Source: Candidatus Kaiserbacteria bacterium (GTDB taxonomy: Bacteria; Patescibacteriota; Minisyncoccia; Phycocordibacterales; UBA918). Taken from it: DNA of 45,022 nucleotides. How positions within the stretch are numbered: the first letter of the stretch is position 1; each line of letters begins with the position of its first letter. The translations under genes were made by a program, and so were the position numbers. This document shows positions 3,673-44,727 of this stretch, piece by piece. The notes under the pieces are model-generated. The model was not told the DNA's origin, ran no database searches, and saw only the letters and a program-made list of their open reading frames with translations. The stretch covers positions 1-45,022 of the forward strand of contig JAYSTK010000019.1 in assembly GCA_043719825.1 (NCBI GenBank), given 5' to 3'.

Positions 3673-4821
3673 ATGTACGTTTATAGACGGCAAGTTGCTG
3701 TCGAGAAAGGGATCGCGACCCTCCTCGCGCTAGCGCTTGTGCTCTGGGTAACGGGTACACACATGTTTATGAAGGCTGAGGCGGCAAACCTTACCTACAT
3801 AAAAGATACCCTATCAAACTCAGCACCAAGTGAGACATCGAATCATACGATTCAGTTTTTGTCACCAACAGGAGTCACAACTACGCAAAGTATTGTTATT
3901 ACATTTCCAAATGGATTCAATCTCAGTACGAGCACAGTAGCGTTTGACGACATCGATTTAGCTGAAGCAGGAGTTGACGAAACACTAGTAGCAGCAGGTG
4001 CAACAACTGCACAATGGAATGTATCCATTTCGGGACAGACGCTTACTTTCACGAGTGGAGGCGCATCAGCAGTTATTGCTGCTAATGCAACCGTTACTAT
4101 TGAAATTGGTACCAATGCAACATTTGGTACAGCTGGTGACGCACAAATTACTAATCCATCTGCAACTACCTCATACGAGTTTACTGCTGCCGCAGGTACA
4201 GCAGACTCAGGACAGTTCCGAGTAGCAATCGTTAATAAAGTACTCGTCACTGCAAACGTTGACACAACACTTACCTTTACAGTGGCAGGAGTGGCAGCAG
4301 GAGCAACCGTGAACACGAGTGCTACAACCACATCGACCACGACAACAAGTAGTGCGATTCCATTTGGAACGCTCGCAGCGAACGTCTCAAAAACTGCCGC
4401 ACAAGATCTTTCAGTTACTACTAATGCTAAAAACGGTTTTGTAGTCACCGTAGAGCAGAGTCAGCAACTTCAGTCATCAACTGGTGCTGACATTGACGGA
4501 TTCGTTAATGGTAGCTGGACAACGACACCAACTGCATGGACTGCCCCGACGAATAACATTGCAAACGAGAATACATGGGGCCATTGGGGTCTTACCTCGG
4601 AAGACTTTGTTACGGGCCGTACGAGTGAATTCTCTGCAAACACATGGGTTGCAGCAAGTACCACTCCGGTTATCATCATGGGCCACACAGGACCATCTGA
4701 TGGAACGACAGCAGGACAAGGTTTGTCTCGAATCGGTTATCAGGCACAAATCGCAACACTTCAAGAAGCAGGTGATGACTACAACACTTCGCTTACATAC
4801 ATTGCGACAGCAACCTTCTAA
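3673..4821 (+). CDS. secreted beta-rich surface protein, SAPS-box family (WxL/CscB-like by architecture)
   Basis: The ATG at 3673 is chosen because the N-terminus then aligns with the paralog at 39135-40286. It has a signal anchor ending AEAA, then the DTLSNSAPSETSNHT box and Thr/Ala-rich beta sequence. It ends in the conserved GYQAQIATLQEAGDDYNTSLTYIATATF. Confidence 0.75.
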   Translation: MYVYRRQVAVEKGIATLLALALVLWVTGTHMFMKAEAANLTYIKDTLSNSAPSETSNHTIQFLSPTGVTTTQSIVITFPNGFNLSTSTVAFDDIDLAEAGVDETLVAAGATTAQWNVSISGQTLTFTSGGASAVIAANATVTIEIGTNATFGTAGDAQITNPSATTSYEFTAAAGTADSGQFRVAIVNKVLVTANVDTTLTFTVAGVAAGATVNTSATTTSTTTTSSAIPFGTLAANVSKTAAQDLSVTTNAKNGFVVTVEQSQQLQSSTGADIDGFVNGSWTTTPTAWTAPTNNIANENTWGHWGLTSEDFVTGRTSEFSANTWVAASTTPVIIMGHTGPSDGTTAGQGLSRIGYQAQIATLQEAGDDYNTSLTYIATATF

Positions 4822-4838
4822 AGATATTCAATCAGAAT

Positions 4839-4870
4839 AAACAAAAACTCCCTTCGGGGAGTTTTTGTTT
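4839..4870 (+). terminator. rho-independent terminator
   Basis: AAACAAAAACTCCC-TTCG-GGGAGTTTTTGTTT is a perfect 14-bp stem with a tetraloop and a T-rich 3' arm. It lies 18 nt after the stop at 4821. Confidence 0.85.
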
Positions 4871-4923
4871 ATATACAGAAATTTCTATTCGAGTTTCTAG
4901 CAAAGTGGTAGGATAGATAAATC

Positions 4924-5994
4924 GTGCGAATCAAACCGCTCTCATTTCTGTTTGGAATTTTCTTAAGTACTTTTCTTGTAACAGTTCCTTTAACAAGTTC
5001 TGCTCAAAATGTTGCAGGCATTAAAGTGATTCCTGCATTCATAAATGGTCTCGCAGATCCGGGAGAGATACTGTATAAGGAAATAAAAATTTCAAATATA
5101 AGTGCAGAAGATAAAGAGTATTTTATATATAAGCGAGATATAAAAGGTGTAGAAGAAGGAGGGGTCCCCATTTTCGCTGATGAAAGTGCAGAAAAAACTG
5201 GATATGAGATATCAGAATGGATTTCACTACAAACAGAACCTGTGCGCGTTGGTGCTGGGGAAACGATCACTTTCCCTTTTAATATAAATGTTCCCGAAAA
5301 TGCATCACCGGGTAGCCACTTTGGCGGTATTTTTGTCTCTGTTGAAGCACCTAAATTACGGGAAATAGGAGCCGGAGTTGGATATGAAGTTGCTTCAATT
5401 GTCAGTATACGTATAAGCGGCGATGTTATTGATGACGCACGAGTTCGCTCATTTTCTACGGATAAACTTTTTTACAGTTCGAAGAATGTAAAATTTAATG
5501 CAAAGATTGAGAATCAAGGAAACATTCTTATCCAACCCCGGGGACCGCTTACGATTACCAGTATGCTTGGAGGTAAACCAGAAACAATAATGGTAAATGA
5601 GGATCTCGCGGGCGTTTTCCCAGGCACTATTCGTGAACTTTCTTTTGACTGGTCAAGTGAAGGAATTGGATTTGGTAAATATGAAGCAATACTTGCTCTG
5701 AGTTACGACGGTGAAGATGGACAAAAAACAATTGATGCTACTGCAGTGTTTTGGGTATTTCCTACAAAAGTAATTGTGCCAATTCTAATTGGCTTCGTAT
5801 CAATAATTGTTATTGGGTACCTTCTCACGCGATACTATATTAATCAGGCGGTGATGAGAGCTGCAGGAGGGCGTCGGATTTCGACATATCGGTATAGAAA
5901 GCAAGTTGGAGTTTCAAGATTTACGTTTGTATTTGTATCAATTTTAGGGGCAATGGTTATTTTCCTCATTGTGCTTCTCATATTGTTTGCGTAG
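4924..5994 (+). CDS. signal peptide + C-terminal TM anchored beta protein, DUF916/CscA-like (or COG1470-like)
   Basis: GTG start, 356 aa. It has a signal peptide ending SSAQN. The beta-sandwich-like blocks are IKVIPAFINGLADPGEILYKEIKISN and ISLQTEPVRVGAGETITFPFNINVPENASPGSHFGGIFV. Two hydrophobic helices lie in the last ~90 aa. The family name comes from remembered sequence pattern only. Confidence 0.65.
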   Translation: MRIKPLSFLFGIFLSTFLVTVPLTSSAQNVAGIKVIPAFINGLADPGEILYKEIKISNISAEDKEYFIYKRDIKGVEEGGVPIFADESAEKTGYEISEWISLQTEPVRVGAGETITFPFNINVPENASPGSHFGGIFVSVEAPKLREIGAGVGYEVASIVSIRISGDVIDDARVRSFSTDKLFYSSKNVKFNAKIENQGNILIQPRGPLTITSMLGGKPETIMVNEDLAGVFPGTIRELSFDWSSEGIGFGKYEAILALSYDGEDGQKTIDATAVFWVFPTKVIVPILIGFVSIIVIGYLLTRYYINQAVMRAAGGRRISTYRYRKQVGVSRFTFVFVSILGAMVIFLIVLLILFA

Positions 5995-6013
5995 CGCGTG
6001 ATAAAATATTCTT

Positions 6014-6400
6014 ATGACTCATGGTCTATATCATAAAATTCTCAGGGTAAGTATTGTCGTTACTTCACTTGTACTATTATTTGATGGGGGATTTATAACT
6101 CCGATTACAAAATCGTTGTCGCAAAATACCTACGTGTATTTAGGGAATGCGGTAGGCATATTCGCCGGCGTTGAACCTAATGAACTCAATGTCATTACCG
6201 CAGAATTAACCGAACGCACTCGTAATCTTGATGTACGTGAGCAACAAATTAGGGAACGTGAGATTGCGACACGCGATTTCAATAGTTCGCGGAACGATTA
6301 TTCAATTTATATTCTCTCCGTTATACTTTTTGCACTCACGTGCCTCATTTTGGTTAATTATGCGCTTGATTGGCGACGGGCGCGTCGCGTTTTTGCATGA
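6014..6400 (+). CDS. small bitopic/two-TM membrane protein with charged coiled segment
   Basis: 128 aa, with an N-terminal hydrophobic segment (VSIVVTSLVLLF), a central ELTERTRNLDVREQQIREREIATRD segment and a C-terminal TM (IYILSVILFALTCLILV). Its stop overlaps the next start (ATGA at 6397-6400). Confidence 0.55.
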   Translation: MTHGLYHKILRVSIVVTSLVLLFDGGFITPITKSLSQNTYVYLGNAVGIFAGVEPNELNVITAELTERTRNLDVREQQIREREIATRDFNSSRNDYSIYILSVILFALTCLILVNYALDWRRARRVFA

Positions 6401-7206
6401 AAAGAACTCTCTTAAAAGGAACGCTCGTAGTACTCACTGCATCAATTGTTTCTACACTTGGTATTTTTGCGTCTGATACATTGCGCGGTATTGATGGTGG
6501 AGTGGCAAACATCGGTGGAAGTGGCGGTGGCACATGTCGGGCAGGAATGGTAGCTCAAAAAATAGATGATACTCTTATCTGTGTTGATATGTATGAGGCA
6601 AGTCCCTCTACACAGTGTCCTCATGGAGCGCCCCAAAATGCACTTGAGAGCGAGAAAAATGCATCTACGCCCGAATGCTATGCTGCATCAGTTGCGCGAC
6701 AAGTTCCTTGGGTATTTGTCACCCTTTCACAAGCGCAACGCATGTGTGCTGAAGCCGGGAAAAGACTTCCAACAAATGATGAGTGGTATAAAATTGCTCT
6801 TGGTACTGACCCCTCTCTATGTGTCATTAATGACAATAGCCCAAAAAAAACAGGCACACCATCATGTGTTGCATCCTCTGGAGCGTACGATACGGTAGGA
6901 AATGTATGGGAATGGGTTGATGAAACTGTTGAAGGTAATCAATTTAAAGAGCGACCAATTCCTCCCGAAGGCTATGTGACTTCAGCAGATGCTTCTGGCG
7001 TGGCTATTACAACTGATTTAAATACGGGAGATCTACTCTATGGAGAGGACTATTTTTGGTCTAAGAGTGAAGGTATATCCGGCATGATACGAGGAGGATT
7101 TTATGGTAGTGGGGATGATGCGGGGCTCTACACAGTGAACGCCACCGTTGCGACAAACTTTGCGGCGCAAGGAGTTGGATTCCGCTGTGTAGAAGACATC
7201 ATTTAA
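6397..7206 (+). CDS. membrane-anchored FGE/SUMF1-fold (formylglycine-generating enzyme family) domain protein, copy 1
   Basis: The ATG at 6397 is preferred over 6370. It has an N-terminal TM. The motifs CVDMYEA, RLPTNDEWYKIALG, GNVWEWVDE, RGGFYGS and GFRCV are the hallmark blocks of the FGE-sulfatase/SUMF1 fold. No Cys lies between RGG and GFRC. Confidence 0.8.
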   Translation: MKRTLLKGTLVVLTASIVSTLGIFASDTLRGIDGGVANIGGSGGGTCRAGMVAQKIDDTLICVDMYEASPSTQCPHGAPQNALESEKNASTPECYAASVARQVPWVFVTLSQAQRMCAEAGKRLPTNDEWYKIALGTDPSLCVINDNSPKKTGTPSCVASSGAYDTVGNVWEWVDETVEGNQFKERPIPPEGYVTSADASGVAITTDLNTGDLLYGEDYFWSKSEGISGMIRGGFYGSGDDAGLYTVNATVATNFAAQGVGFRCVEDII

Positions 7207-7233
7207 GGAAACCGGAGAACGTATACTAGGAGC

Positions 7234-8040
7234 ATGAAATGGGTAAAGACCTGTATTGTTATTATATGTGCTGTAGTGGTAACTGCGCTTGGTATTGATG
7301 CGGCTGATACCATTAAAGGCTCAGAAGGAACACTCTTCTCACAAGTAATACATTCAACGGGAGAAGGCAGCTGTCCTTCCGGTATGCTTGAAATTCAAAA
7401 TGTTCTTACAATTAAATGTGTTGATCAATTTGAAGCATCGCCGAGCGAAAAGTGTCCTATCCCCGAGCCACAAAGTTCAATTGAGTCTCATAAAAATGCG
7501 GAATCTTCAATATGCACTGCAGAATCAAAAAAGGGGGTAAATCCATGGCGCTTTGTAAACCGAGATCAAGCAATGCAATTGTGTGCGCGAGAGGGGAAAC
7601 GTCTCCCTACAAGTGCGGAATGGTTCAACTTGAGTCTTGGGATGATTGAGGTTGAAGCATCCTGCAACATCAGCTCAAAAAAAATTTCACAGACAGGAAG
7701 CTTGTCAGAGTGCAAATCGCCTGCAGAAGTTTTTGATCTTGTGGGTAATGTGTGGGAATGGGTGCATGACGATGTCGTGGACGGAAAATATAATGAAAGA
7801 CAGCTTCCGAAAAATGGTTTTGTTATGCAAGCCGATAATGCGGGCATGGCTGTCAAAACAAGCGAACAAGAGGATCCCCTGTTCGGTAATGATTACTTCT
7901 GGTCGCCTGAGTCTGGTGTATACGGGATTGTTCGCGGCGGATATTACGACAGTGGGAGTGATGGCGGTATGTATTCCGTTCATGCAGACACACCTCCAAA
8001 CGCTGCAAGCATTGGAATTGGGTTTCGCTGTGTGATGTAA
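7234..8040 (+). CDS. membrane-anchored FGE/SUMF1-fold domain protein, copy 2 (tandem paralog)
   Basis: 268 aa with the same block order as copy 1: CVDQFEA, RLPTSAEWFNLSLG, GNVWEWVHD, RGGYYDS, GFRCV. TATACT at 7222-7227 lies 6 nt before the ATG. Confidence 0.8.
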   Translation: MKWVKTCIVIICAVVVTALGIDAADTIKGSEGTLFSQVIHSTGEGSCPSGMLEIQNVLTIKCVDQFEASPSEKCPIPEPQSSIESHKNAESSICTAESKKGVNPWRFVNRDQAMQLCAREGKRLPTSAEWFNLSLGMIEVEASCNISSKKISQTGSLSECKSPAEVFDLVGNVWEWVHDDVVDGKYNERQLPKNGFVMQADNAGMAVKTSEQEDPLFGNDYFWSPESGVYGIVRGGYYDSGSDGGMYSVHADTPPNAASIGIGFRCVM

Positions 8041-8114: not shown

Positions 8115-9986
8115 ATGAATAAATGGGGGAATTTGATGCTCGACATCCTTAAACGAACTCTTATGAGTGGTGTTGCACTTGTGAGCGTATTTTTTGTATC
8201 AGAAAATGCGTTTGCTGCAACAATTCATCAATACAAAGATACCCTATCTGATTCAGCACCAAGCGAGTATTCTAATCATACCGTTGAGTTTAAGACGACA
8301 GTTCCAATTCCATCCGGAGGGTACATACGTTTTATTCCTGACAGCGGAGATTTCACTGTTCCTACCCTAAATTTTGACTATGAAAACGTTGAGTTAGCGG
8401 TTTCTACCTCTTCAGGATATGTCATTCGCTCATCCACATCATCTGTCAGTGCAACTGAGGATGGTGTGACAATTACTCCTGGTTCATCAGGCAAAATTGA
8501 AATATCGCTTAATAGTACCGTTCCGATACCTGCGAATGCATTCCTTAGAATACGAATGGGGAACAATACTCAAAATGCGACAAATACTGATTTGGGGTTT
8601 CAAAATCCGCCAACAACGGGAACATTTGAATATCATATTGAAACAGGCGGAGGAGGAAGCGACTCACGAGTGAGAGGTTTGGTTGCAATCATAGATACTG
8701 TTGGAATTGGTCCGATTGACACTCGAGAAATCGAACCACCTTTTCGATTTAATGGTGCTCCAACAGGAACACTCTCAGGGACAACACAAGTAGTACAGAT
8801 GTCACTTGAGACTAACGAGTTTGCTCAGTGTCGGTATAGTAACGCAGTAGGAACACCCTATTTTTCGATAGGGAATCAGTTCAGCAGTACATTTGTAACT
8901 GTCCACTCAAAAAATCTCACGGTAGCGACAAGTACTACGTATACATTCTACATACGATGTATAGATGATGAAGGAAATGAAAACCTAGATGATTATATTA
9001 TTTCATTTTCTATTCCCGCGTTTCCAGAAGGGTCACCAGGAAATGATGGAGATAATGAAGGACAAGGTTCTGGAACAGGCTCAGGATCAGGAGACTCGGA
9101 CCCCGGCGATGGATCACCTAATGGAGGCGATGATACTAGTGGAGGAACTTCAGGTGGTGGAGGAGGTGGCGGTGGGGGGGGAGGTTCAGGATCGAGTAGT
9201 GGAGGAGATGATGGAGGGGGTGGATTTGAAGGTGTTGGAAAGGCATACCAGAGTGGTGATGGACGAGTCATAATTAACGGATATGCGTTTCCGCGGAGTC
9301 TAGTCTATGTTCTTGTCGACGGTACTATCGCTGATAGTGTTACCGCAAGTGGACTTGGTGAATTCTCCGTTACTCTCGATGCCATAGCACGAGGTGTATA
9401 CAATTTTGGAATCTATGCGATTGACAAAAACAAAGTAAAATCGAGCACGTTTACGACAACATTTACGGTGACTGGGGCGCGCGGCTCAACACTTTCAAAT
9501 ATAAACGTAATGCCTTCAATTAAGGTTACACCGGATCCTGTAGAACCTGGTCAAACCCTACTCGTGTCAGGATTCGCTATCCCCAATGCAGTTATTACCC
9601 TTGAAAATCAGCAAGACAAATCAAGTGTGAGCTTAAAATCTTACACAACCAATTCTGACGCAAATGGAGCATGGAGTGTCTCAATTGAAACAACAGGATT
9701 TAAAAAGGGAACATATAAAGTACGTGCCAAAGCAAAACAAGAAACAGGAGATTTGGCACAAACGAACTACTCAAACTATACATTTTATGGAGTTGGTGAA
9801 TCAGCGGCTACACCGCGTTCTTCTGATCTTAACCGTGACGGCAAAGTAAACCTTATCGATTTTTCGATATTATTATTTTGGTGGAATAGCGATGGAGGAA
9901 ATTCAAATCCTCCGGCTGACATAAATGGCGATGGGCGAGTAAGTTTGACAGACTTCTCTATTTTGATCTTTAATTGGACTGGATAA
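8115..9986 (+). CDS. secreted surface protein: SAPS-box N-module, Gly/Ser linker, Ig-like repeats, C-terminal dockerin
   Basis: 623 aa. The signal peptide ends AFA, followed by DTLSDSAPSEYSNHT. A G/S/D-rich linker runs through about 9040-9230. The C-terminus carries two EF-hand-like dockerin segments, DLNRDGKVNLIDFSILLFWW and DINGDGRVSLTDFSILIFNW. Confidence 0.8.
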   Translation: MNKWGNLMLDILKRTLMSGVALVSVFFVSENAFAATIHQYKDTLSDSAPSEYSNHTVEFKTTVPIPSGGYIRFIPDSGDFTVPTLNFDYENVELAVSTSSGYVIRSSTSSVSATEDGVTITPGSSGKIEISLNSTVPIPANAFLRIRMGNNTQNATNTDLGFQNPPTTGTFEYHIETGGGGSDSRVRGLVAIIDTVGIGPIDTREIEPPFRFNGAPTGTLSGTTQVVQMSLETNEFAQCRYSNAVGTPYFSIGNQFSSTFVTVHSKNLTVATSTTYTFYIRCIDDEGNENLDDYIISFSIPAFPEGSPGNDGDNEGQGSGTGSGSGDSDPGDGSPNGGDDTSGGTSGGGGGGGGGGGSGSSSGGDDGGGGFEGVGKAYQSGDGRVIINGYAFPRSLVYVLVDGTIADSVTASGLGEFSVTLDAIARGVYNFGIYAIDKNKVKSSTFTTTFTVTGARGSTLSNINVMPSIKVTPDPVEPGQTLLVSGFAIPNAVITLENQQDKSSVSLKSYTTNSDANGAWSVSIETTGFKKGTYKVRAKAKQETGDLAQTNYSNYTFYGVGESAATPRSSDLNRDGKVNLIDFSILLFWWNSDGGNSNPPADINGDGRVSLTDFSILIFNWTG

Positions 9987-10226: not shown

Positions 10227-10691
10227 ATGTCCTTTTTGCAACGACTCAAAGGGAGGGGTATTCGTACCGAGCAGCGACTCCAATCAAGTGAAGAAGAGAC
10301 GGCGCTTGATAAAATCGTGCAGCTTGATGTGGATGTGTATCAAACCACCGATCTCATCGTTGTGTATGCGCAATCTGCAGGTGCAGAACTCTCGGAGATT
10401 CATGTGTCAATTGAGGGAGATGCCGATGTTGTACTCATAGAGGGAAAGCGCCTTAGACCTGAGCATATTGCTTTTCCAAAGAAAAAGCCTGATGGAGTTT
10501 TTTTTACAGAAGAATGCGTGTGGGGAGATTTCTATAGAAGAATTATACTTCCAGAGAGTATTGATATTACGAAGGCAGAAGCGAAAGTAAAAAATGGTGT
10601 TCTTGTGTTGGTGCTACCACTATTGCGTCCTGAAGAAAAAGAAAAAGTAAGACTTAAGATTCAGCGTGCAAAAGCACCGAGAGGTGGCTGA
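10227..10691 (+). CDS. hsp20: small heat-shock protein, Hsp20/alpha-crystallin family
   Basis: 154 aa. VDVYQTTDLIVVYAQSAG...HVSIEGDADVVLIEGKR...FYRRIILPESIDITKAEAKVKNGVLVLVLP follows the alpha-crystallin domain pattern. TAGAAT at 10213-10218 lies 8 nt before the ATG. Confidence 0.85.
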   Translation: MSFLQRLKGRGIRTEQRLQSSEEETALDKIVQLDVDVYQTTDLIVVYAQSAGAELSEIHVSIEGDADVVLIEGKRLRPEHIAFPKKKPDGVFFTEECVWGDFYRRIILPESIDITKAEAKVKNGVLVLVLPLLRPEEKEKVRLKIQRAKAPRGG

Positions 10692-10710
10692 TAAAATTTC
10701 AAGATATTCT

Positions 10711-12243
10711 ATGCCTGTTCTTTTAGTTCAAAATTCTCAAATCATCCGCACACTTATAATCAGTATATTTTTTTACTGTATTTTCGGCGTTGCATACCAT
10801 GCGACCGCAGCCGAAGTGGTTGTTACCCCTACCACTGCTACGTATTCGAAAGGTCAGACATTTACAACTACGATTCAAGTAAATCCTCAAGGTAAAAGTG
10901 TGAATGCGGTAGAGGCGAAACTTTCATTTGACTCTACAAAATTTGCCGTTGTAAGTATTTCTAAAACTGGTTCAGTTTTTTCACTTTGGACTACTGAACC
11001 CACATTTTCAAATTCAGCGGGCACAATTGAGTTTGGAGGTGGAAGTCCCACACCATTTACTGCAAAATCAAATCTTGTTTCTATAACGTTACGAACATTA
11101 GGAGAGGGAAGTGGAACACTGAGCGTGTCGACAGCTTCCGTGCTTGCGGCAGATGGTCTCGGTACAAATGTTTACACAGGTGCGAGTAATGGTACGTACT
11201 CAATAAGTGCGGCAGCTGTTACACCTCCGCCAGTCGAGCCAGAAGAGGAAGAAGAAGTTGTTTCCCCAGAAAAGCCAAAAGAAGAGAGTGAAGCAGCAAT
11301 TACCTTTGGAGACCCTCCACGAGCCCCAGAAGCTGGGTCTTCAGTATTTCTCGAGCCTGACAAGTGGTATGCAACGAAAGCTGGTCTTTTTACATGGGAG
11401 ATACCATTTGATGTAGATGAACTTGCACTTGATATTGCTACGTCTGTTGATGCAACTCCAACAACTAAGTACGACCCACCAATTGAAGAAATTGCACTTA
11501 ATGCAACCATGCTCATTGATGGAGTTCAATATCTCACCATGCAGTATAAAAATCAGGTTGGTTGGGGGGCAATACTCCACCGAAAGATCATGATTGACAC
11601 TGTCCCACCTGAGAAATTCGTGATAAATGTACGTGCAGGAAACACACCTTCAGCGTTTCCACTTCTAAACTTTGAGGCAATCGATTCTATATCTGGTATA
11701 GAGCGCTACGAAATGACTATTGCAGATGGGGAACCCATTCCTGTAACTCCAGATGAAGCAAAACTTGGCTATCTTATTAAAAACCTTGAAGATGGAACAT
11801 ACACCGTTCGAGTTACTGCGTTTGACTATGCAGGGAATGAGACCTTAGCGTCAGTACCTCTCCTCATTACTGCGGGATGGCTGCCACCACAAGAAATTGT
11901 AGTAACGAGCTCTTTCTGGGACCTGTTTAAAGGGAAAAATCTCGTTATCATATTGCTTCTTATTTCTCTCATTGCTCTCATCTCATATATTGTTTCACTT
12001 AAAAAAACAGCTGAGCATAAGGAACAAAAACTTAGAAAAGAAACAAAAGAAATCCAGGATCAGATGGAAAAAATATTCTCTGCTCTTCGTGACGAAATCT
12101 ATGATCAAATCAATATGATTACAAAACGCGAGCGACTTTCAAAGAAGGAGAAGGAAGCTGTTGAAGGCTTGAACCAAGCACTTGAAGTTTCAGAAACCTT
12201 GATTGAAAAAGAGATCACTGATGTGAGCAAAATACTCAAATAA
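10711..12243 (+). CDS. cohesin-like domain protein with Ig-like domain, TM anchor and ~80-aa cytoplasmic coiled-coil tail
   Basis: The ATG at 10711 is preferred over 10666, which overlaps hsp20. A signal segment is followed by VVVTPTTATYSKGQTFTTTIQVNPQGKSVNAVEAKLSFDSTKFAVVSISK...FGGGSP...LAADGLGTNV, a cohesin-like beta sandwich. The TM is at about 11941-12000, followed by a charged helical tail. It is a paralog of 41576-43321. Confidence 0.75.
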   Translation: MPVLLVQNSQIIRTLIISIFFYCIFGVAYHATAAEVVVTPTTATYSKGQTFTTTIQVNPQGKSVNAVEAKLSFDSTKFAVVSISKTGSVFSLWTTEPTFSNSAGTIEFGGGSPTPFTAKSNLVSITLRTLGEGSGTLSVSTASVLAADGLGTNVYTGASNGTYSISAAAVTPPPVEPEEEEEVVSPEKPKEESEAAITFGDPPRAPEAGSSVFLEPDKWYATKAGLFTWEIPFDVDELALDIATSVDATPTTKYDPPIEEIALNATMLIDGVQYLTMQYKNQVGWGAILHRKIMIDTVPPEKFVINVRAGNTPSAFPLLNFEAIDSISGIERYEMTIADGEPIPVTPDEAKLGYLIKNLEDGTYTVRVTAFDYAGNETLASVPLLITAGWLPPQEIVVTSSFWDLFKGKNLVIILLLISLIALISYIVSLKKTAEHKEQKLRKETKEIQDQMEKIFSALRDEIYDQINMITKRERLSKKEKEAVEGLNQALEVSETLIEKEITDVSKILK

Positions 12244-32644: not shown

Positions 32645-32740
32645 GATTTCTGACTTCAGTCCGTATCAGAAGGATTTTGAAGATGCGCTTTGAATCTGTG
32701 CGCAGCAATGTACGAAATCCCAACGATTTTGATAAAAGTA

Positions 32741-32798
32741 TAAAAAAGAAAACAGCTCCAGCAGGGAAGACGGAGATGTCTTCGCTCAGCGGGAGCTG
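32741..32798 (-). terminator. rho-independent terminator of the minus-strand gene
   Basis: On the minus strand, CAGCTCC...GGAGCTG (32753-32759 with 32792-32798), with an inner GAAGAC/GTCTTC helix, is followed by TTTTCTTTTTTA (complement of 32741-32752). It lies 20 nt after the stop of 32818-33252. Confidence 0.65.
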
Positions 32799-32817
32799 CC
32801 TATAGTGATGCTGGACT

Positions 32818-33252: not shown

Positions 33253-33470
33253 TCAGGACCTTCATAGAAGAAGAAAAAAGTACACTGACTCAAATCGAGT
33301 CGCCTATCAATACTGTACTATGATTCAATCAAAAGTCAAATTTATAAAGTTATGTGACACAGAAATGAGTAAATATTTTTTAAAAAATTTACTTAAGAGA
33401 TGACGACAGATCATAACTTATACAGCCGCGTGCATTCCTTATTATGGTGTTTCTATTTACTATATAGAGT

Positions 33471-36691: not shown

Positions 36692-37630
36692 ATGATGAAG
36701 ATATTACTTCGCGCCTTTTTTTGTACAATTGTTTTTGTATTGGTGTTTGTGAATACAGTACATGCTGGTTTTGGTATTACTCCTCCATATGTTACAAACT
36801 CAAGTCTCACGAGAAACTCAATTTACGAGCAAGTAATCTATCTTGTTAGGAGCGACCCAACCACCGATCTCAAAGCAACAATAAGTATAGATGTCCCCGG
36901 CATTAACGAATGGTTTACTGTTGCTGAAGGAAATGAATTTATACTTCACCGAGGTGAGCAAAAAGTTCCAATGACTATAAAAGTGTCCGTTCCTGATAAA
37001 GCAGATTTCAAGCAATATAAAGGTAATATTCGAATAAAGACAGGCGCTCCAGATGATAGTGTTGCTTCAGCCGGTGTAAATATTTCTCTTGGTGCTCAAA
37101 TTGATGTTGATTTAAATGTTATAGACAAAGAGATTTTAGATTTTAAAGTGAGGCGTATTGGTATATCAGATTTAAATGAAGGTCATAAAGTTGGATGGTT
37201 ATATTTCCCCGGAAAGATTATGTTTGAAATGTATATTGAAAACATAGGAAACGTACCCGTTTCTCCATCAGATGTTGTGTTTAGAATCTATGATAGATCA
37301 GGTAACGTGATTCTTGAAGAGACACACAAAAAAGGAAAAATCGATAGTGTTGATCCTTTTATGACAGAAACAGTTTTTGCGGAACTCCCCACTCGTCTAC
37401 CGCAAGGAAGCTATCTCGCTCGATTTGAAATCAAAAATGGAGAAGAAATAAAACTTGCTGGGGAAGTAAACATAAGTATCTTGCCATTTGGTACTTTAGA
37501 TGCAGCAGGTTTTGGTTTTGCCGGCCTTTCACTTCCGCATAAACTTTCTGTTGTGGTTCCGATATTTTTCGCTGGTATGTTAGTTGTTTTAATTCTTGTT
37601 CGTATAGGAAGTCGACGTAAGATCAAGTAG
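36692..37630 (+). CDS. signal peptide + C-terminal TM anchored beta protein, DUF916/CscA-like, second copy
   Basis: 312 aa. The signal peptide ends VHA, then GFGITPPYVTNSSL...EQKVPMTIKVSVPDKADFKQYKGNIRIKT. The C-terminal TM is VVVPIFFAGMLVVLILV, followed by RIGSRRKIK. The layout matches 4924-5994. Confidence 0.7.
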   Translation: MMKILLRAFFCTIVFVLVFVNTVHAGFGITPPYVTNSSLTRNSIYEQVIYLVRSDPTTDLKATISIDVPGINEWFTVAEGNEFILHRGEQKVPMTIKVSVPDKADFKQYKGNIRIKTGAPDDSVASAGVNISLGAQIDVDLNVIDKEILDFKVRRIGISDLNEGHKVGWLYFPGKIMFEMYIENIGNVPVSPSDVVFRIYDRSGNVILEETHKKGKIDSVDPFMTETVFAELPTRLPQGSYLARFEIKNGEEIKLAGEVNISILPFGTLDAAGFGFAGLSLPHKLSVVVPIFFAGMLVVLILVRIGSRRKIK

Positions 37631-37634: not shown

Positions 37635-38759
37635 ATGAATGAATTCCGCATATCAACATCGGGTCTCTTAGCCGGAGGGATCCTCATATTGCTCTCATGT
37701 CCTTTTTTTGCACACGCTCAGATTAATATAGCAACCACTTCTGTGCTCATTAGTATTTGTGGTGATCTCATCATCAACTCGGGGGAGGAGTGTGATGTGC
37801 CAAGTGATACTGGGGCATACAGCACATCAATAACAGGACGACAGTGCACGACTGAGTGTCGATTTGCTGCATATTGTGGGGACGCGATTCTGCAAACACT
37901 ATTCGGAGAACAATGCGATGATGGTAACAACAACAATGATGACTTTTGTTCAGCTAATTGTGCTGAAGAAACTGCTGATGCAGGAGGAGGGTCAACAGGA
38001 GGTGGTGGAAGTTCTGGTTCTGGAGGGAGAGATTCAGCACTTGGAGACACACAGGTTACGCTTCAAGGAAAAGCATACCCAAATGTGACGGTTACGATTC
38101 TCATGGATAGCAAATCAGTCGGTACCGTCCGCACAAATTCTAAAGGAGAATTTTTATTTAATTTAGCAGCAGATCCGGGTACTGCATCATTTAGTTTTTG
38201 GGCCAATGATCAAACTGGCACTCGTTCTTCAACATTCACTACAACGTTTGATGTTACGCAAGGAGCAGTAACAAATGTAAGTGGCATTCTTATCCCGCCG
38301 ACTATACGGACAGCAACTTCACAAGTTAATCCAGGTGCAATAATCATACTCGAAGGACAAACGATTCCAAATGTAAACGTGGAAATTTCTGTCGACAATG
38401 GCGCACGTATGCTCAACACGCTTTCTGATGCGACCGGAAAGTGGACGACGTCACTCAATACAACCGGCCTCAGTGTGAATACCCACACTGCCAAGGCACG
38501 TTTTATTGAAGGTGCAAGTACGCTTAAACGGGAAAGTACATATGGATCGAACCTCTCCCTATTTATTGGTGTGGAAGGGAAGGCAACAAGTAATTCGGAT
38601 CTAAATCGTGATGGAAAAATAAACTTAGTGGACTTTTCAATTCTTGTTTTTTGGTGGGGAACACCAGGTGGAAATTCAAATCCTCCCGCTGATATAAATA
38701 GTAATGCAAAAGTAGGTCTTGAAGATTTTTCTATTTTACTTTTTAACTGGACGGGCTAA
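37635..38759 (+). CDS. secreted protein: Cys-rich repeats (myxococcal/DUF4215-like), Gly linker, Ig-like repeats, C-terminal dockerin
   Basis: 374 aa. CGDLIINSGEECDVPSD... and CGDAILQTLFGEQCDDGNNNNDDFCSANC fit the CGDG..EECDDGN..C repeat. A GGGSTGGGGSSGSGG linker follows. The C-terminal half is paralogous to 8115-9986. The dockerin segments are DLNRDGKINLVDFSILVFWW and DINSNAKVGLEDFSILLFNW. Confidence 0.8.
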   Translation: MNEFRISTSGLLAGGILILLSCPFFAHAQINIATTSVLISICGDLIINSGEECDVPSDTGAYSTSITGRQCTTECRFAAYCGDAILQTLFGEQCDDGNNNNDDFCSANCAEETADAGGGSTGGGGSSGSGGRDSALGDTQVTLQGKAYPNVTVTILMDSKSVGTVRTNSKGEFLFNLAADPGTASFSFWANDQTGTRSSTFTTTFDVTQGAVTNVSGILIPPTIRTATSQVNPGAIIILEGQTIPNVNVEISVDNGARMLNTLSDATGKWTTSLNTTGLSVNTHTAKARFIEGASTLKRESTYGSNLSLFIGVEGKATSNSDLNRDGKINLVDFSILVFWWGTPGGNSNPPADINSNAKVGLEDFSILLFNWTG

Positions 38760-38766: not shown

Positions 38767-38822
38767 GCATAGAAAATACACATGACACTAATCTATAAGA
38801 TTAGTGTCATGTGTATTTATGC
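38767..38822 (+). terminator. long perfect hairpin after 37635-38759
   Basis: AAATACACATGACACTAATC (38774-38793), loop TATAA, GATTAGTGTCATGTGTATTT (38799-38818) form a 20-bp perfect stem. GCAT (38767-38770) pairs with ATGC (38819-38822) as an extension. There is no clear U-tract. GAGCATAG at 38765-38772 overlaps the hairpin base. Confidence 0.55.
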
Positions 38823-40539: not shown

Positions 40540-40548
40540 TGGTATACT
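40540..40548 (+). promoter_or_regulatory. extended -10-like element
   Basis: TGgTATACT at 40540-40548, 9 nt upstream of the ATG at 40558. Confidence 0.35.
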
Positions 40549-40557
40549 AAGTGCATT

Positions 40558-41586
40558 ATGTTGTTTCTCCGGATACACTTGTATATAAGCATTTTTGCAA
40601 TTTTAGTCTGTGCATTCGTTCTTATCCTTGTCTCTATTCCAACATCAGTTAACGCAGCACTTTTGTATTTTGATCCAAGTGAAGCGTCCCTCTATAGAGG
40701 GGATACTGTAACCTTAAATCTCAGGATAGATACTGACGAAGGTGAGTGCATTAATACAGTTGACGCCGTAGTGAAGTACGGTGATGGGATACGTGCCGTT
40801 GATGTTTCTCGAGGTGATTCAATTCTCAATATATGGGTTGAAAATCCATTAATTGATGAAGTTAATAAAACAGTAACTTTTGCTGGTGGAATTCCTGGAG
40901 GATACTGTGGGAGAGCTCTCGGAGATCCGAGTCTTACCAATGTTATCGCAGCTATTGTTTTTAATTCCCCCGGTTTCAGTGTGGGCGGCACGAGCGTCCC
41001 CATTGTTGCTGTGGACATTGCTCCAGAATCACAAGTGTTGCTTCATGATGGGCTCGGTACTGTAGCAAATCTTAATACTCAGGGAACAAAAATTACTCTC
41101 CTTGCAACACCAGGTCAAACAGGAACTGATGCATGGAATGAGACGGTGAGTGAAGATCTCGTCCCTCCTTCAGATTTCAGTGTTGGCATTTCTCAAGACG
41201 AAACAGCTTTCAGCAATCAATATTTTATTGTTTTTAACACACAAGATAAACAATCGGGTATTGATCATTATGAGGTCATTGAAGAACCGCTCGAAGATTT
41301 CTATACGTTTACATGGGGTCGCGCTGACGCTCCGTGGCTTACCGTTGAAAGTCCCTATGTTCTAAAGGATCAAACACTTAATAGCACAATTCGAGTAAAA
41401 GCTATTGATAAAGCGGGGAATGAAAGGATCACAGTGCTTGTACCCGATAGTGCAATTAGATCTATTTCATTTAACCGGATGATTACCTATGCGCTCAGTG
41501 GAGTAATCGGAATAATTCTACTTATGGGGATTGTTTATATTCTTATAAAACGTAAAAGCAAACTTGAAGCAACCTATGAGCAATAA
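40558..41586 (+). CDS. cohesin-like domain protein with Ig-like domain and C-terminal TM anchor
   Basis: 342 aa with a signal anchor. LLYFDPSEASLYRGDTVTLNLRIDTDEGECINTVDAVVKYGDGIRAVDVSRGDSILNIWVENP...FAGGIPGGY follows the same block order as the other cohesin-like modules. The TM is near the C-terminus (VIGIILLMGIVYILI), with a short basic tail. Confidence 0.7.
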   Translation: MLFLRIHLYISIFAILVCAFVLILVSIPTSVNAALLYFDPSEASLYRGDTVTLNLRIDTDEGECINTVDAVVKYGDGIRAVDVSRGDSILNIWVENPLIDEVNKTVTFAGGIPGGYCGRALGDPSLTNVIAAIVFNSPGFSVGGTSVPIVAVDIAPESQVLLHDGLGTVANLNTQGTKITLLATPGQTGTDAWNETVSEDLVPPSDFSVGISQDETAFSNQYFIVFNTQDKQSGIDHYEVIEEPLEDFYTFTWGRADAPWLTVESPYVLKDQTLNSTIRVKAIDKAGNERITVLVPDSAIRSISFNRMITYALSGVIGIILLMGIVYILIKRKSKLEATYEQ

Positions 41587-43321
41587 ATGTGCATTGAATA
41601 TAGTATGGAGTGCAGCTCTACTCTTATTTGTTTTTATTATTCCCACATATGCTCTTGCTGCTACATTGCGATTAAGTCCAGAAACGGGCGTGTATACAGC
41701 GGGGAGCACATTTACCGCAAATGTAATTATTAATACTGATGGCAAATCAGTGAATGCCGCAGACGGACAACTTTCCTTCAATCCTAAAGAACTTTCTGTG
41801 GTAAGTGCAACTCGAGGAACCTCTATTTTTAATCTATGGACCCTCGAGCCAACATTTTCAAACAGTGCAGGAACTATTTCATTTGGTGGTGGATCACCAT
41901 CTGGCTATAAAGGATCCAATGGAACAATTATGTCGGTTACGTTCCGTACACAATCAGCAGGAACTCCCAAAGTTTCTTGGAAAAGTGGTTCCATTTTAGC
42001 AGCGGACGGACTAGGCACCAATATACTTACTTCGATGAACGGAGGCACCTACACAGTAGGTGCTAAAAGTGAAACACCACCTGCCGAGTACATTCCCCCC
42101 GCAAATACGCCAAAAGCTCCTACAATAACTTCATCTACACATTCAGATACTGAGCGTTGGTACAAAGAAAAAAATGCCGAACTCGCATGGAGTATCCCAA
42201 ATGATGTTATTGCAGTAAGAACTTTACTTGATAATTCAAAAGAAACTATACCGACAATTATTTATGATGAACCAATTACCAAAAAAAGTATTACTGCCTT
42301 ACATGAAGGAGTATCATATTTTCACATTCAATTCAAAAATGCAGATGGATGGGGAAGAATAACTCATTTTCCACTTCGCATTGATTCTGAAGCACCAAAG
42401 CGTTTTGATATAACAGAAACGGAAACAGATGCAGAAAAGCCCGTTCGTACACTCACGTTTGATATTGAAGACACATCGCCAATATCTAAATATGTTGTTC
42501 AAGTCGATGGTGGGGAACCCGTTGAATATATTGATACAAAAAATACGAAACAATATGAACTTAAGGATTTAAATCCAGGGAACCACACTGTGGTAATTGA
42601 GGCATTCGATAGTGCAGGAAATAGTCGCGTTGCTACATACTCCTTTACTATTGATTCGTTTGAACCACCAGTATTTACAGATTATCCGACACGACTTCAA
42701 ACTAATGTTATCCCTGCTCTAAAAGGAATGACTCGCCCTCGAGTACAGGTTTATATTGAAGTTAGAAAAGCTTCAGACGGAGCAATCGTAGGAGGTGAAA
42801 GCACCGATACTTCTAGTCCATCAAATATTACTGCAAACGAAAAAGGGGAATTTACGTATGTGCCTAATACTGCTTTTGAAAAAGGTGTATATATAATTAC
42901 TGCTACGGCTCGAGATGAATTCGGTAGGCAGAGTGAAAAATCTGAGGAAATTAGAATCATTGTCGATGCTCCGGGATATGTGGTTATTGGAACAATTGTG
43001 GTGAATGCACTTTCAGTCATTGTCCCTCTTATTGCACTCTGCCTCCTGCTCATTTTTGGTACATGGTTTCTTTTTCATAAACTAAGAGTATGGAAAAGAC
43101 GGGTGATGAGAGAAACGTTAGAAGCTGAAGATAAATTAAGAACAGAACTTGATGCTATTATCGACAACATGCATGCTCGTGTGAATGATCTAAAAGAATC
43201 ACGAAAGTCAAAATTGACTCAAGCAGAATCAGCACTCATCGAACAAATTGAACATGATGTTGCTTCAGCTCGAGAAAAAATCAAGAAGGAAATTACTGAT
43301 ATTGAACGTATTGTAGAATAA
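41576..43321 (+). CDS. cohesin-like domain protein with Ig-like domains, TM anchor and ~80-aa cytoplasmic coiled-coil tail
   Basis: The ATG at 41576 (MSNKCALNIVW...) overlaps the upstream gene by 11 nt. LRLSPETGVYTAGSTFTANVIINTDGKSVNAADGQLSFNPKELSVVSATRGTSIFNLWTLEPTFSNSAGTISFGGGSP...LAADGLGTNI is closely parallel to 10711-12243. The TM is at about 43015-43075, followed by a charged tail ending KEITDIERIVE. Confidence 0.8.
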   Translation: MSNKCALNIVWSAALLLFVFIIPTYALAATLRLSPETGVYTAGSTFTANVIINTDGKSVNAADGQLSFNPKELSVVSATRGTSIFNLWTLEPTFSNSAGTISFGGGSPSGYKGSNGTIMSVTFRTQSAGTPKVSWKSGSILAADGLGTNILTSMNGGTYTVGAKSETPPAEYIPPANTPKAPTITSSTHSDTERWYKEKNAELAWSIPNDVIAVRTLLDNSKETIPTIIYDEPITKKSITALHEGVSYFHIQFKNADGWGRITHFPLRIDSEAPKRFDITETETDAEKPVRTLTFDIEDTSPISKYVVQVDGGEPVEYIDTKNTKQYELKDLNPGNHTVVIEAFDSAGNSRVATYSFTIDSFEPPVFTDYPTRLQTNVIPALKGMTRPRVQVYIEVRKASDGAIVGGESTDTSSPSNITANEKGEFTYVPNTAFEKGVYIITATARDEFGRQSEKSEEIRIIVDAPGYVVIGTIVVNALSVIVPLIALCLLLIFGTWFLFHKLRVWKRRVMRETLEAEDKLRTELDAIIDNMHARVNDLKESRKSKLTQAESALIEQIEHDVASAREKIKKEITDIERIVE

Positions 43322-43328
43322 AAATGCT

Positions 43329-43985
43329 ATGAAAAATTATTTAACAGAACATCTTCTCATAGCAGGTAATGCTTTATTGCTTGCTGCTATTATCGCTCTC
43401 TCTGCATGGACGATTGAAAATACAAAAGCAAATACACTTTCGCTTTTACAAAGTAATATTGAAACACAAGTAACACACATAACGGAACTTGCAGAACTTA
43501 CTGATAGAAATGGCGCAGATGCTGTGACTGAAGAAATCATATCTGATTGTCCTCGCCGTGTAGAATTTGAAAATCAACTCATGCGCCTCGATAGCGCAAC
43601 AAAAAGAGAGCTCATTACAATTCAACAATTATTTGAAAGTTGTGGCACTTTTTTTGCTGAAAGAAAGGCACTTATGGTTTCTCGTTTAGAACGGGAATTC
43701 TTGAGTTTGAAAAATGATTTAGCCTTATTGAGTACCATTCGAGATCTATCATCTAATGAAGAGAAATTGAAGGAATGGGAAAAACTTATTGAATTAGAAA
43801 AAACGAGGAGTGCATTACTCGCAGAACAAACTGCAATTCAAGAAAAAATTATTAGTCTTCTCATGAGTGATACCAATGTGACTGTCGAAATCAATGTCCT
43901 TGTACGAGAAGCACAAAATGTGAGTCAATCATTATCTGTTACGGGCGCTCAAATTGATACGTTGACCAAAGAGCTCACTAACTAA
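43329..43985 (+). CDS. N-terminally anchored coiled-coil protein
   Basis: 218 aa. One N-terminal TM (LLIAGNALLLAAIIALSAWTI) is followed by heptad-like charged helical sequence. It is tightly packed between two cohesin genes. Confidence 0.6.
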   Translation: MKNYLTEHLLIAGNALLLAAIIALSAWTIENTKANTLSLLQSNIETQVTHITELAELTDRNGADAVTEEIISDCPRRVEFENQLMRLDSATKRELITIQQLFESCGTFFAERKALMVSRLEREFLSLKNDLALLSTIRDLSSNEEKLKEWEKLIELEKTRSALLAEQTAIQEKIISLLMSDTNVTVEINVLVREAQNVSQSLSVTGAQIDTLTKELTN

Positions 43986-43986
43986 T

Positions 43987-44727
43987 ATGCGTGATTGGCT
44001 TACTCGAATACTTTTTCCATCCTACTACCGCTCGCAACCGCGAAGTACCGTACGCTATGCCTTCCCTATCATAGCGCTCACTGCACTGTTTGCTGGGTTA
44101 GCTTCTGTCGTGAGTCAAGATTCTTCGTATATTATTGTTCAAACAACACCTTCAACTATTAAAGAAGGTGAAACATTTACTATTGAAGTAAGAGCCCATG
44201 CGAGCACTCCAGTGAATGCTGTAGATATCACACTTAACTATCCAGAAAATCAAATATCCATAGAGAGTATTGATAAAGGAACTTCCGTCATTACCCTATG
44301 GACACAGGATCCCTATGCAAGAAACGGCAAAATATACTTACGAGGTGGAGTCTTTCAAAAGGGATTTCTTGGTGAACATACAATTGCTCGTATCAGAGCA
44401 AAAGCGACTCAGGCTGGTCTTGCGTACGTGTCACTTGATACCGCCGCACTTATAGCTGGAGATGGTAAAGGAACAGAAGTAATTGTGGAGCGAACAAGTA
44501 AGGATGAAACTAGAATCCTAGTTCAGAATAAAGAGGGATCCCTCACCGGTGAGGCAAGTGTCGCTATTGTCACCGATATAGATGGTAGTGGGGGAGTTGA
44601 TATTAGAGACATATCAGCTTTTATGGCCGCGTGGTTTACAAAAGGTAAAGTGTTTGATTTTAACAATGATGGAAAGATGACTTTTAGAGATTTTTCAATT
44701 TTGCTTGCAGATTCATTTTTTAAGTGA
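43987..44727 (+). CDS. anchored protein carrying both a cohesin-like module and a dockerin (adaptor-type)
   Basis: 246 aa with an N-terminal TM. The cohesin-like module is IKEGETFTIEVRAHASTPVNAVDITLNYPENQISIESIDKGTSVITLWTQDP...LIAGDGKGTEV. The dockerin pair is DIDGSGGVDIRDISAFMAAWF and DFNNDGKMTFRDFSILLADSF. Confidence 0.75.
   Translation: MRDWLTRILFPSYYRSQPRSTVRYAFPIIALTALFAGLASVVSQDSSYIIVQTTPSTIKEGETFTIEVRAHASTPVNAVDITLNYPENQISIESIDKGTSVITLWTQDPYARNGKIYLRGGVFQKGFLGEHTIARIRAKATQAGLAYVSLDTAALIAGDGKGTEVIVERTSKDETRILVQNKEGSLTGEASVAIVTDIDGSGGVDIRDISAFMAAWFTKGKVFDFNNDGKMTFRDFSILLADSFFK

Follow-up and report, generated by a model that had tools for sequence, protein, structure and literature searches.

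The window analysed here is a 45,022-nucleotide stretch of a Candidatus Kaiserbacteria genome (contig JAYSTK010000019.1), and our subject is the run of about 20 consecutive + strand genes between positions 3673 and 44727, which is a real, module-linked and conserved cell-surface locus. We put at about even the chances that this locus builds chaperone-assisted, strand-complemented surface fibres of the Parcubacteria cell, in the same mechanistic class as the Pam pilus of Candidate Phyla Radiation (CPR) bacteria and the WxL/WxLIP clusters of Firmicutes. The proposal draws on module content, homologies, predicted folds, membrane topology and conserved gene order. Genes are numbered g01 to g24 across the window (labels of this report, not database names), and all those of interest lie on the + strand. 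By a hydrophobicity scan, the products of g05 to g24 all have a signal or anchor segment at the N-terminus, apart from those of g10, g11, g15 and g16: neither g11 nor g15 has one, the signal-like segment of g10 is weaker and falls short of the threshold, and g16 is a permease with four transmembrane segments. The same scan finds C-terminal transmembrane segments in g06, g07, g12, g18, g21 and g22.

Gene order is kept among relatives. A scan of species-representative genomes with an alignment of the pilin-like proteins yielded 174 relatives, and 80 loci were kept, nearly all of them in metagenome-assembled genomes (MAGs) of Parcubacteria type. The order in most of the loci on long enough contigs is CAP, UmuD, (cupin), UmuC, g05 to g12, the giant-protein gene g13, and g14 to g24, with protein identities of 40-90% across the approximately 80 loci. 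A first, sequence-only reading of this DNA had claimed a single module-linked envelope locus and had proposed gene order in related genomes as a check on it; the locus is borne out by its common modules and its kept gene order, and the order is conserved in most of the loci compared. For the 120 listed relatives of each of g20, g18 and g17, the named sources are Minisyncoccia, Ca. Paceibacterota and Ca. Kaiserbacteria.

The same reading knew of no characterised system with such a combination of parts, and there it was mistaken, since counterparts exist in the two systems already named. The Pam filaments of the saccharibacterium Ca. Mycosynbacter amalyticus consist of pilins, PamA and PamB, that have been seen by electron cryomicroscopy (Troman et al., bioRxiv 10.64898/2026.03.03.709456). 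In a Pam pilin, an N-terminal sandwich of nine strands is followed by one linker strand and by a truncated Ig-like C-domain, which accepts the linker of its neighbour. The operon, according to the same preprint, further codes for PamC and PamD, whose FimC/PapD-like fold is combined with a C-terminal transmembrane helix, for a tip subunit, PamT, that consists of the C-terminal domain (CTD) only, and for an RbmA-like anchor, PamR; PamA carries an unexplained modification, and homologs are found mainly in Saccharimonadia and Microgenomatia. In Firmicutes, a gene for WxLIP, which is composed of DUF916 (PGBD), DUF3324 (HBD) and a transmembrane helix, adjoins genes for two secreted proteins, a small one and a large one, both of which end in a WxL domain, and the DUF916 domain of WxLIP is predicted to insert a strand into its partner's WxL domain (Hassan et al. 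2023, PMC10599100). The Kaiserbacteria locus appears to work most like these two systems while being a clear member of neither.

Pilin-like subunits and their putative chaperones

[quoted passage not shown] The Pam likeness comes from NF058581 (CPR_Pam_pilin_C), an NCBIfam model whose source is the Pam preprint and whose cut-off is 55 bits: it matches residues 225-382 of g05 with 21.7 bits (E 1.7e-4) and g20 with 22.2 bits (E 1.2e-4), both below cut-off, the match spanning in each case the whole 148-position profile and the C-terminal ~160 residues of the protein. Across 33 diverse members of the g05/g20 family, the model matches 26 at E up to 1 (the best at 1.5e-9), and no other family matches more than two. 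A WxL domain (PF13731) was found in none of the 33 at E up to 10, and searches of PDB sequences with g05, g06 and the pilin profile returned nothing. Two pilin genes are present on many contigs of the related loci, with 35-52 kb between them; those of the window are separated by 35.5 kb.

AlphaFold2 models were made of g20 and g18, both as monomers (mean predicted local distance difference test score, pLDDT, of 72 and 69). The g20 model has nine confident N-domain strands at residues 42-172 (pLDDT mostly above 85-90), then a linker strand (178-184) and, at 199-381, a C-domain that is rich in beta structure and has pLDDT of 35-75; this predicted layout matches the one reported for PamA and PamB. 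Whether the C-domain is truncated is not readable from a model of such low confidence in that part; the low confidence would be expected of a fold that needs a partner strand, though it is not proof of one. Conservation within the pilin family is among the highest in the linker region, as has been published for Pam. A Foldseek search of the PDB with the g20 model brings up SdrG and ClfA, which are two-Ig adhesins, and the CfaE-CfaB pilin fusion, all of which work by strand complementation; a Pam structure is absent from these matches (library up to April 2026).

The product of g10 (8115..9986) has the pilin N-domain and linker strand but no pilin C-domain, and continues instead into Ig-like domains, a Gly/Ser spacer and a dockerin. 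A hidden Markov model (HMM) of the pilin N-domain plus linker matches it at E 1.4e-17 over positions 2-150 of 159, and its orthologs are matched as far as the linker's end, at ~1e-8 to 1e-22; g10 retains the linker motif AI[VI]DxVxVxxVDT, and blastp aligns g05 with the g10 N-terminus at 28% identity over 193 aa (E 1.6e-10). The N-terminal module beginning DTLSxSAPSxxSNHT, which had been picked out from the sequence in g05, g10 and g20, is thus confirmed by both kinds of search. The complementary arrangement occurs in related loci, where the pilin C-domain HMM matches the extreme C-terminus of large proteins at E 3e-22 to 5e-14. These are proteins of 1,155 aa in L029 (E 3e-22), where the gene lies past the g24 region, of 1,871 aa in L026 and of 1,893 aa in L024 (our labels for loci in other genomes); L024 and L026 also have extra pilin and chaperone-like genes, located after a protein of ~1,890 aa. 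As judged from sequence, the pilin family would then come in three forms, one both donor and acceptor (g05 and g20), one donor only (g10) and one acceptor only (the large proteins), which correspond to the three roles that a strand-exchange fibre requires.

The proteins that would handle such subunits are encoded by g06 (4924..5994) and g18 (36692..37630). The product of g06 is a predicted membrane-anchored, chaperone-like protein of the WxLIP/PamC-D kind, with a signal peptide, two Ig-like domains and two C-terminal transmembrane segments (residues 283-301 and 336-354); that of g18, also chaperone-like and membrane-anchored, has a signal peptide, two beta-sandwich domains and a transmembrane helix. 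The two had been singled out from the sequence as beta proteins with a signal peptide and a C-terminal transmembrane segment, and the N-terminal hydrophobic and C-terminal transmembrane segments are present in each. Their families are homologous (hhalign probability 98%, E 2e-13, with agreement from HMM searches). WxLIP_PGBD (PF06030, DUF916) scores 21.8 bits in g06 itself (E 2e-4), below its cut-off of 27.3; of 26 members of the g06/g18 family, 16 match it, the best at E 2e-9. No match to DUF3324 is listed for either protein. NCBIfam models of other Pam components do not match g06 or g18, for which it gives weak FxLYD, PACE-CTERM and choice-of-anchor matches and, for g18, a weak match to a 'putative S-layer protein' model.

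The AlphaFold2 model of g18 shows a signal helix, two beta-sandwich domains and a transmembrane helix, and its best PDB matches in Foldseek are Enterococcus faecium WxLIP structures, 9i25_C and 9i1y (E 5e-9 to 2e-8), the former bound to a long WxL protein. (A literature search found no publication for the 9i25 WxLIP-WxL structure.) CfaA, Caf1M, FimC, PapD and SafB also match, at E 1e-7 to 5e-6 and with low template-modelling (TM) scores, as does RbmA. By the g18 model and the homology of g06 to g18, the two fit the description of the membrane-anchored, FimC/PapD-like chaperones of the Pam operon. Of the suggestion that the locus contains WxL/Csc-like parts, the half that concerns g06 and g18 stands, through the fold of g18 and the WxLIP_PGBD matches of the family; the other half does not, no WxL domain being detectable. 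Within related loci g18 always lies after g17.

These proteins are well conserved. Identity to g20 is 65-92% among the 120 listed homologs of its 630 database relatives; g18 has 1,490 database relatives, and for g20, g18 and g17 taken together, identity among the 120 listed for each is 61-92% once the window's own entries are set aside. Of the g20 homologs that are closest, more than half come from contigs of 1.2-1.8 kb, barely longer than the gene. Such short contigs could reflect collapse of the assembly on a very conserved gene, or could be assembled from an abundant transcript.

Dockerins, cohesins and the giant protein

Besides g10, dockerins are found in g19 (37635..38759), which encodes DUF4215 Cys-rich repeats, two Ig-like domains (Big_6 is also matched in Pfam) and a dockerin, and in g24 (43987..44727), which combines a cohesin with a dockerin in the manner of an adaptor. 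The C-terminal halves of g10 and g19 are 41% identical over 245 aa (blastp E 7.5e-44), so that the Ig-like-plus-dockerin halves are paralogous, as had been proposed. Dockerin_1 scores 37 bits in g10, with g19 (22.2 bits) and g24 (20.7 bits) marginal against the cut-off of 22.9; all three dockerin families show strong conservation of the duplicated Ca-loop motifs. Scores and loops together uphold the claim of dockerin pairs in three genes. The consensus sequences of the g10 and g19 dockerins are near-identical and that of g24 is different.

Cohesin-like modules had been claimed for four genes, and the family profiles join all four. The product of g12 (10666..12243) has a cohesin, an Ig-like domain, a C-terminal transmembrane helix (residues 426-444) and a charged tail, and is proposed to be a membrane anchor; g21 (40558..41586) specifies a cohesin-like domain and a C-terminal transmembrane helix at 312-330, and g22 (41564..43321) a cohesin, Big_13 Ig-like domains, a transmembrane region and a coiled-coil tail. 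Pfam Cohesin is above cut-off in g12 (27.3 bits) and g22, just below it in g24 and absent in g21, but comparison of cohesin family profiles by hhalign connects g21 with g22 (E 1e-28), g12 (E 2e-24) and g24 (E 1e-10); g12 and g22 are paralogs with 37% identity in blastp. Each of the four proteins has one cohesin, and three of them have a transmembrane anchor formed by a C-terminal helix, the charged tails of these three being presumably cytoplasmic. The annotated GTG start of g12 overlaps the end of g11 by 26 nt, and an internal ATG (MPVLLVQ...) may be the true start.

The type-I-like dockerins with duplicated Ca-binding loops, the cohesins and the adaptor carrying both are what this locus has in common with known cohesin-dockerin systems. 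It differs from them in having no enzymes or carbohydrate-binding modules (CBMs), a single cohesin per protein, a dockerin fused to a pilin N-domain, and anchoring by transmembrane helices rather than by S-layer homology (SLH) domains or sortase signals. A literature search on cohesins and dockerins in Parcubacteria returned only cellulosome papers, none of which names Parcubacteria.

The largest gene of the locus, g13 (12325..29097), encodes a giant fibre or adhesin of 5,590 aa, of which Thr, Ser and Gly make up 35%. It has an N-terminal anchor segment, DUF2341, a duplicated unit of ~150 aa (1413-1565 and 1679-1831) and longer internal repeats (~2700-3570, 3670-4290 and 4270-4833) that are 40-52% identical to one another, and it ends in a C-terminal module (CTM) at 5324-5590. 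A 'phage tail collar' had also been suspected in the giant; Pfam gives it no support at E up to 0.01, and it has been dropped. The CTM recurs at the end of the 610-aa secreted product of g17 (34748..36580), which resembles the last ~300 aa of the giant with E 1e-18 in blastp and E 9e-36 over 288 columns in hhalign. Identity to g17 is 61-92% among the 120 listed homologs of its 799 database relatives.

A single C-terminal beta module had been thought to be common to g05, g20, g17 and the giant. Instead there are two: g05 and g20 share one, g17 and the giant share another, and hhalign comparison of the pilin C-domain with the CTM gives E of 0.02-0.2, whether the profiles are shallow, deeper or enriched with intermediate sequences, the similarity being confined to short motifs (PFGxL, WG[IL] and AGxY...F/YxA). 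Since these comparisons are not significant, the two modules are treated here as separate families. NCBIfam, Pfam and PDB sequence searches found nothing that would annotate the CTM, and 31 CTM sequences contain no WxL domain at E up to 10. The module is widespread nonetheless: a search of 1.84 billion representative proteins places it in 898 clusters (753 at E up to 1e-10), and among the 150 clusters listed its position is almost always the extreme C-terminus or close to it, the proteins reaching 7,622 aa. This placement is the behaviour that would be expected of an attachment module. Within the related loci, the CTM is limited to the orthologs of g17 and the giant.

A further resemblance concerns the predicted mature N-termini of g17 (34871-34930) and g19 (37713-37770), which share AQxxATT[ST]V, a motif that resembles an inter-domain strand 'TVxVxNxxP' inside g17. 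An HMM of the g17 N-terminus has g19 N-termini as its best non-self matches, none of them individually significant, and the reverse search gives nothing. The motif could be a donor strand, but the signal is weak and is not built upon here.

A fibre model and its competitors

In the scheme that we favour, the subunits would be secreted by Sec and the membrane-anchored, two-Ig proteins g06 and g18 would hold new subunits by beta-strand complementation, after which a strand of one subunit would fill the incomplete C-terminal Ig-like domain of the next. The shaft would consist of g05 and g20 as repeating subunits, polymerising via their linker strands. Proteins that have the acceptor module without pilin N-domain or linker would be placed at the distal end as adhesins; the large protein encoded past the window, as seen in relatives, would be one of these, and the giant and g17 may be others through the CTM, perhaps with g18 as their partner. 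Because it has the N-domain and linker but no C-domain, g10 would end the chain at the base, where its dockerin would plug into a cohesin on g12, g21 or g22. The dockerin of g19 would dock likewise, and g24, which carries cohesin and dockerin, would serve as an adaptor, so that g19 and g24 would extend the docking network. Polymerisation, cohesin-dockerin pairing and a role of the ATP-binding cassette (ABC) system are each things that we infer. Anchoring of the fibre through cohesin and dockerin, suggested by the domain content of these proteins, has in our estimation less than an even chance. Doubtful, though a possibility to be taken seriously, is the full arrangement in which the base is docked by a dockerin-cohesin membrane anchor, rather than by a transmembrane helix of its own, and adhesins of several thousand residues are attached distally via their C-terminal modules.

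The likeness to Pam is one of general plan: both are found in CPR bacteria, which have no outer membrane, both have secreted two-domain pilins (with g05 and g20 weakly matching the Pam pilin C-domain model) and chaperone-like proteins whose transmembrane helix is C-terminal, and both have several paralogous subunits per locus and a large fibre-like protein nearby. In contrast, the present locus is in Parcubacteria, not in Saccharimonadia or Microgenomatia; it has dockerin proteins, one with a pilin N-domain and linker, and cohesin-transmembrane proteins instead of PamT and PamR; and it adds the 5,590-aa protein, a second, widespread C-terminal module, a pair of proteins with FGE fold and a MacB-type ABC system. 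It may be that g10, g19 and the cohesin-transmembrane proteins take PamR's place. With WxL/WxLIP (Csc) clusters the locus shares a two-Ig protein with a C-terminal transmembrane helix, near small and large secreted proteins with C-terminal modules, as well as the match of the g18 model to 9i1y and 9i25 and that of the g06 family to WxLIP_PGBD; its presumed partner proteins, unlike those of WxLIP, have a Pam-like C-domain or a CTM and no WxL domain. Pfam finds no WxL match (PF13731) in any window protein, where a WxL cluster would have at least two, and to our knowledge WxL clusters have neither cohesin-dockerin parts nor polymerisation. Chaperone-usher pili (Fim, Pap, Caf1, CFA/I) offer a more distant parallel in their PapD-like two-domain chaperone fold and, if our scheme is right, in donor-strand complementation, acceptor-only tip subunits, repeating subunits and a terminator. 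Here, by contrast, the chaperones are membrane-anchored and the strand donated by the two-domain subunits would be an internal linker, not an N-terminal extension. Neither Pfam nor NCBIfam finds an usher family in the window; CPR bacteria are without an outer membrane. What is new in the Kaiserbacteria locus is the fusion of a pilin N-domain with a dockerin, the cohesin-transmembrane anchors, the giant protein, the widespread CTM and the occurrence in Parcubacteria.

Several observations weigh against a Pam-like fibre. The match of ~22 bits to the Pam pilin model compares with a cut-off of 55, which no score that we have seen reaches, and the comparison with Pam was made by way of that profile and the published description, not with Pam sequences or structures. 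PamA and PamB have paired cysteines; g05 and g20 have none. The AlphaFold2 models are of only moderate confidence, and the TM-scores of the Foldseek matches are low (0.2-0.3). No CTD-only PamT and no RbmA-like PamR with fibronectin type III (FnIII) domain and transmembrane helix is present in the window, and the ATP-synthase neighbourhood published for Pam is not seen at the locus. The CTM could not be linked to the pilin C-domain, which makes its acceptor role a conjecture. Finally, the genes for CAP, UmuD/UmuC and the embedded hsp20 are just as syntenic as the surface genes to which they are unrelated, so that gene order alone is no proof of a functional unit: it may reflect clade-wide genome stability, not function.

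That last point is at the heart of one competing explanation, namely that several unrelated surface genes are adjacent only through clade-wide stability of gene order. Differences between genomes in what lies between g15 and g16 add to its appeal, but it leaves the common modules out of account: the pilin N-domain of g05, g10 and g20, the Ig-dockerin half of g10 and g19, the CTM of g13 and g17, the cohesins of g12, g21, g22 and g24 and the chaperone-like fold of g06 and g18 are spread across the locus. A further point against chance clustering is that an adhesin or pilin, a chaperone-like protein, a protein with a dockerin and a cohesin anchor recur as a set. We regard mere adjacency as rather improbable. 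A stronger contender, though still an unlikely one, is a non-filamentous complex of WxL/Csc type, in which g06 and g18 would tether single copies of g05, g20, g17 and the giant, with no polymerisation, and cohesin-dockerin pairs would add display proteins. Three things are as this explanation would have them: WxLIP, both unbound and in complex with a long WxL protein, is among the best structural matches of g18; the majority of the g06/g18 family matches WxLIP_PGBD; and the locus mirrors the WxLIP logic of a small protein and a large protein with a C-terminal module. The explanation has more difficulty with the lack of any Pfam WxL match even at E up to 10, with the Pam pilin C-domain as the sole recurrent family of g05 and g20, in the layout of a polymerising pilin, and with g10, which, being without a C-domain, makes most sense as a chain terminator.

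Alternatively, g05 and g20 might form an S-layer or wall sheet, the other proteins being independent components of the envelope. The conservation of g20 is extreme for a surface protein and suggests an abundant structural one, and the weak NCBIfam match of g18 points in the same direction; we nonetheless consider a sheet quite improbable in view of the C-domain match of Pam type, the pilin-like model with its two domains, the chaperone-like gene beside each pilin or adhesin gene (g06 after g05, g18 after g17) and the fusion of the pilin C-domain to the ends of large adhesins. Cohesins and dockerins also bring to mind a cellulosome-like scaffold for the display of enzymes, which is hardly credible here: the dockerins are on Ig-domain proteins, not enzymes, and each cohesin protein has its single cohesin, so that nothing resembles a multi-cohesin, CBM-bearing scaffoldin. 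Pfam identifies no glycoside hydrolase, CBM or other carbohydrate-active enzyme in any gene of the window, in agreement with the sequence-only reading, and it is for the absence of any enzyme that a cellulosome was rejected; for the same reason adhesion or host contact is the more plausible function. Strand-complemented fibres of the kind outlined above are the explanation that we favour.

Other genes, locus edges and wider meaning

The remaining genes of the locus are for the most part conserved in position. Pfam supports the FGE-sulfatase, MacB_PCD/FtsX, ABC_tran, DUF4215 and DUF2341 assignments that had been made from the sequence; it finds no phage tail collar. Downstream of g06, g07 (6014..6400) encodes a small protein with two transmembrane segments, conserved in position and with no family match, and is followed by g08 (6370..7206), whose signal-anchored product has the FGE-sulfatase fold (PF03781, E 8.6e-11), and by its paralog g09 (7234..8040; 42% identity; PF03781, E 1.1e-11). 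Our guess is that this pair modifies subunits. Eight of the related loci (L049, L058, L064, L071, L077 and L082-L084) have a ~600-aa ABC-ATPase-like gene between g07 and g10, 25-31% identical to g15, which lies beside the FGE-fold genes in some genomes and in their place in others. Between g10 and g12 is g11 (10227..10691), which encodes Hsp20 (PF00011, E 2e-10); it is presumably cytoplasmic, since it has no signal or transmembrane segment, and is probably not part of the assembly, even though it occupies the same position in relatives, where it is 49-95% identical (69-95% in most). The product of g14 (29387..30916) is secreted and has FN3 repeats (Pfam fn3, E 3e-21), and that of g23 (43329..43985) has an N-terminal transmembrane segment and helical repeats; both are conserved in position.

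The ABC system consists of g15 (31201..32523), an ABC ATPase (ABC_tran, E 6e-32) with a C-terminal extension of ~210 aa that has no Pfam match, and g16 (33471..34679), a MacB-type permease with four transmembrane segments and an extracytoplasmic core (MacB_PCD, E 5e-17; FtsX, E 1e-16). Together they provide the ATPase and the MacB_PCD/FtsX permease that define a system of MacB type, and they resemble MacB/FtsEX-type transporters in this pairing of an ABC ATPase with a four-transmembrane permease carrying a MacB periplasmic core domain. They differ in the absence of a membrane-fusion adaptor or known partner, in the extension of the ATPase and in being split by a variable insert. That insert, at 32523-33471, has only minus-strand ORFs (open reading frames) in the window, and other genes in relatives (Fic/RhuM, a trypsin-like protease, Bac_transf), and has the look of a hot-spot for insertions within what should be a two-gene transporter operon. 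Synteny is our basis for guessing that this system serves the assembly, and our guess at its function would be mechanical help with release or assembly. No family was matched by the minus-strand ORFs of the gap, by g15 in its C-terminal extension or by the small overlapping ORFs.

Window positions 83-3381, directly upstream of the surface locus, hold g01 (a CAP-domain membrane protein), g02 (UmuD), g03 (a cupin) and g04 (UmuC). Most related genomes keep these genes in synteny with the surface locus; the cupin is detected in only a few. At the other end, an ORF begins at about 44977 (44977..45022, + strand; MRKRKTIKTALILNK) and continues past the edge of the window. In relatives, g24 is followed by two more genes, the first of ~580 aa and the second for another large protein; these genes and the new ORF mean that the locus reaches beyond 44727. 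Within it, 15 nt past the stop codon of g19, lies an inverted repeat (38774-38818) of 20 bp that is perfect and has a loop of 5 nt; it is followed by a gap of 316 nt to g20, which suggests that g20 is transcribed on its own. A promoter and terminator scan of the 36-45 kb region found no more sites than in shuffled sequence, and Rfam and tRNA scans gave nothing. Two database labels deserve mention. A 4.8-kb contig with orthologs of g17 to g20 (L078; PXDL01000553.1) is filed as a 'Balneolia bacterium' MAG and is probably mis-binned Parcubacteria, and many binchicken MAGs that have the locus carry the name 'uncultured Candidatus Saccharibacteria', which looks like a generic label.

The ultrasmall Parcubacteria rank with the most abundant of uncultured bacteria, and what is at stake is their mode of attachment to hosts or particles. 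The presence of this locus in many of their genomes, with an unusually well conserved pilin-like protein, means that it may specify a major structure of their envelope. If the fibre model is correct, the principle of the Pam pilus extends to a third large class of CPR bacteria. The locus also links that principle, by fold and by weak sequence similarity, to the WxL/WxLIP clusters of Firmicutes, and it suggests two mechanisms: the anchoring of fibres through cohesin and dockerin, and the coupling of giant adhesins to the envelope by a widespread C-terminal module. Cohesin-dockerin pairs would then gain a role in pilus anchoring, and the Pam pili of CPR bacteria and the WxL/WxLIP systems of Firmicutes would be branches of one ancient, chaperone-assisted pathway of cells without an outer membrane.

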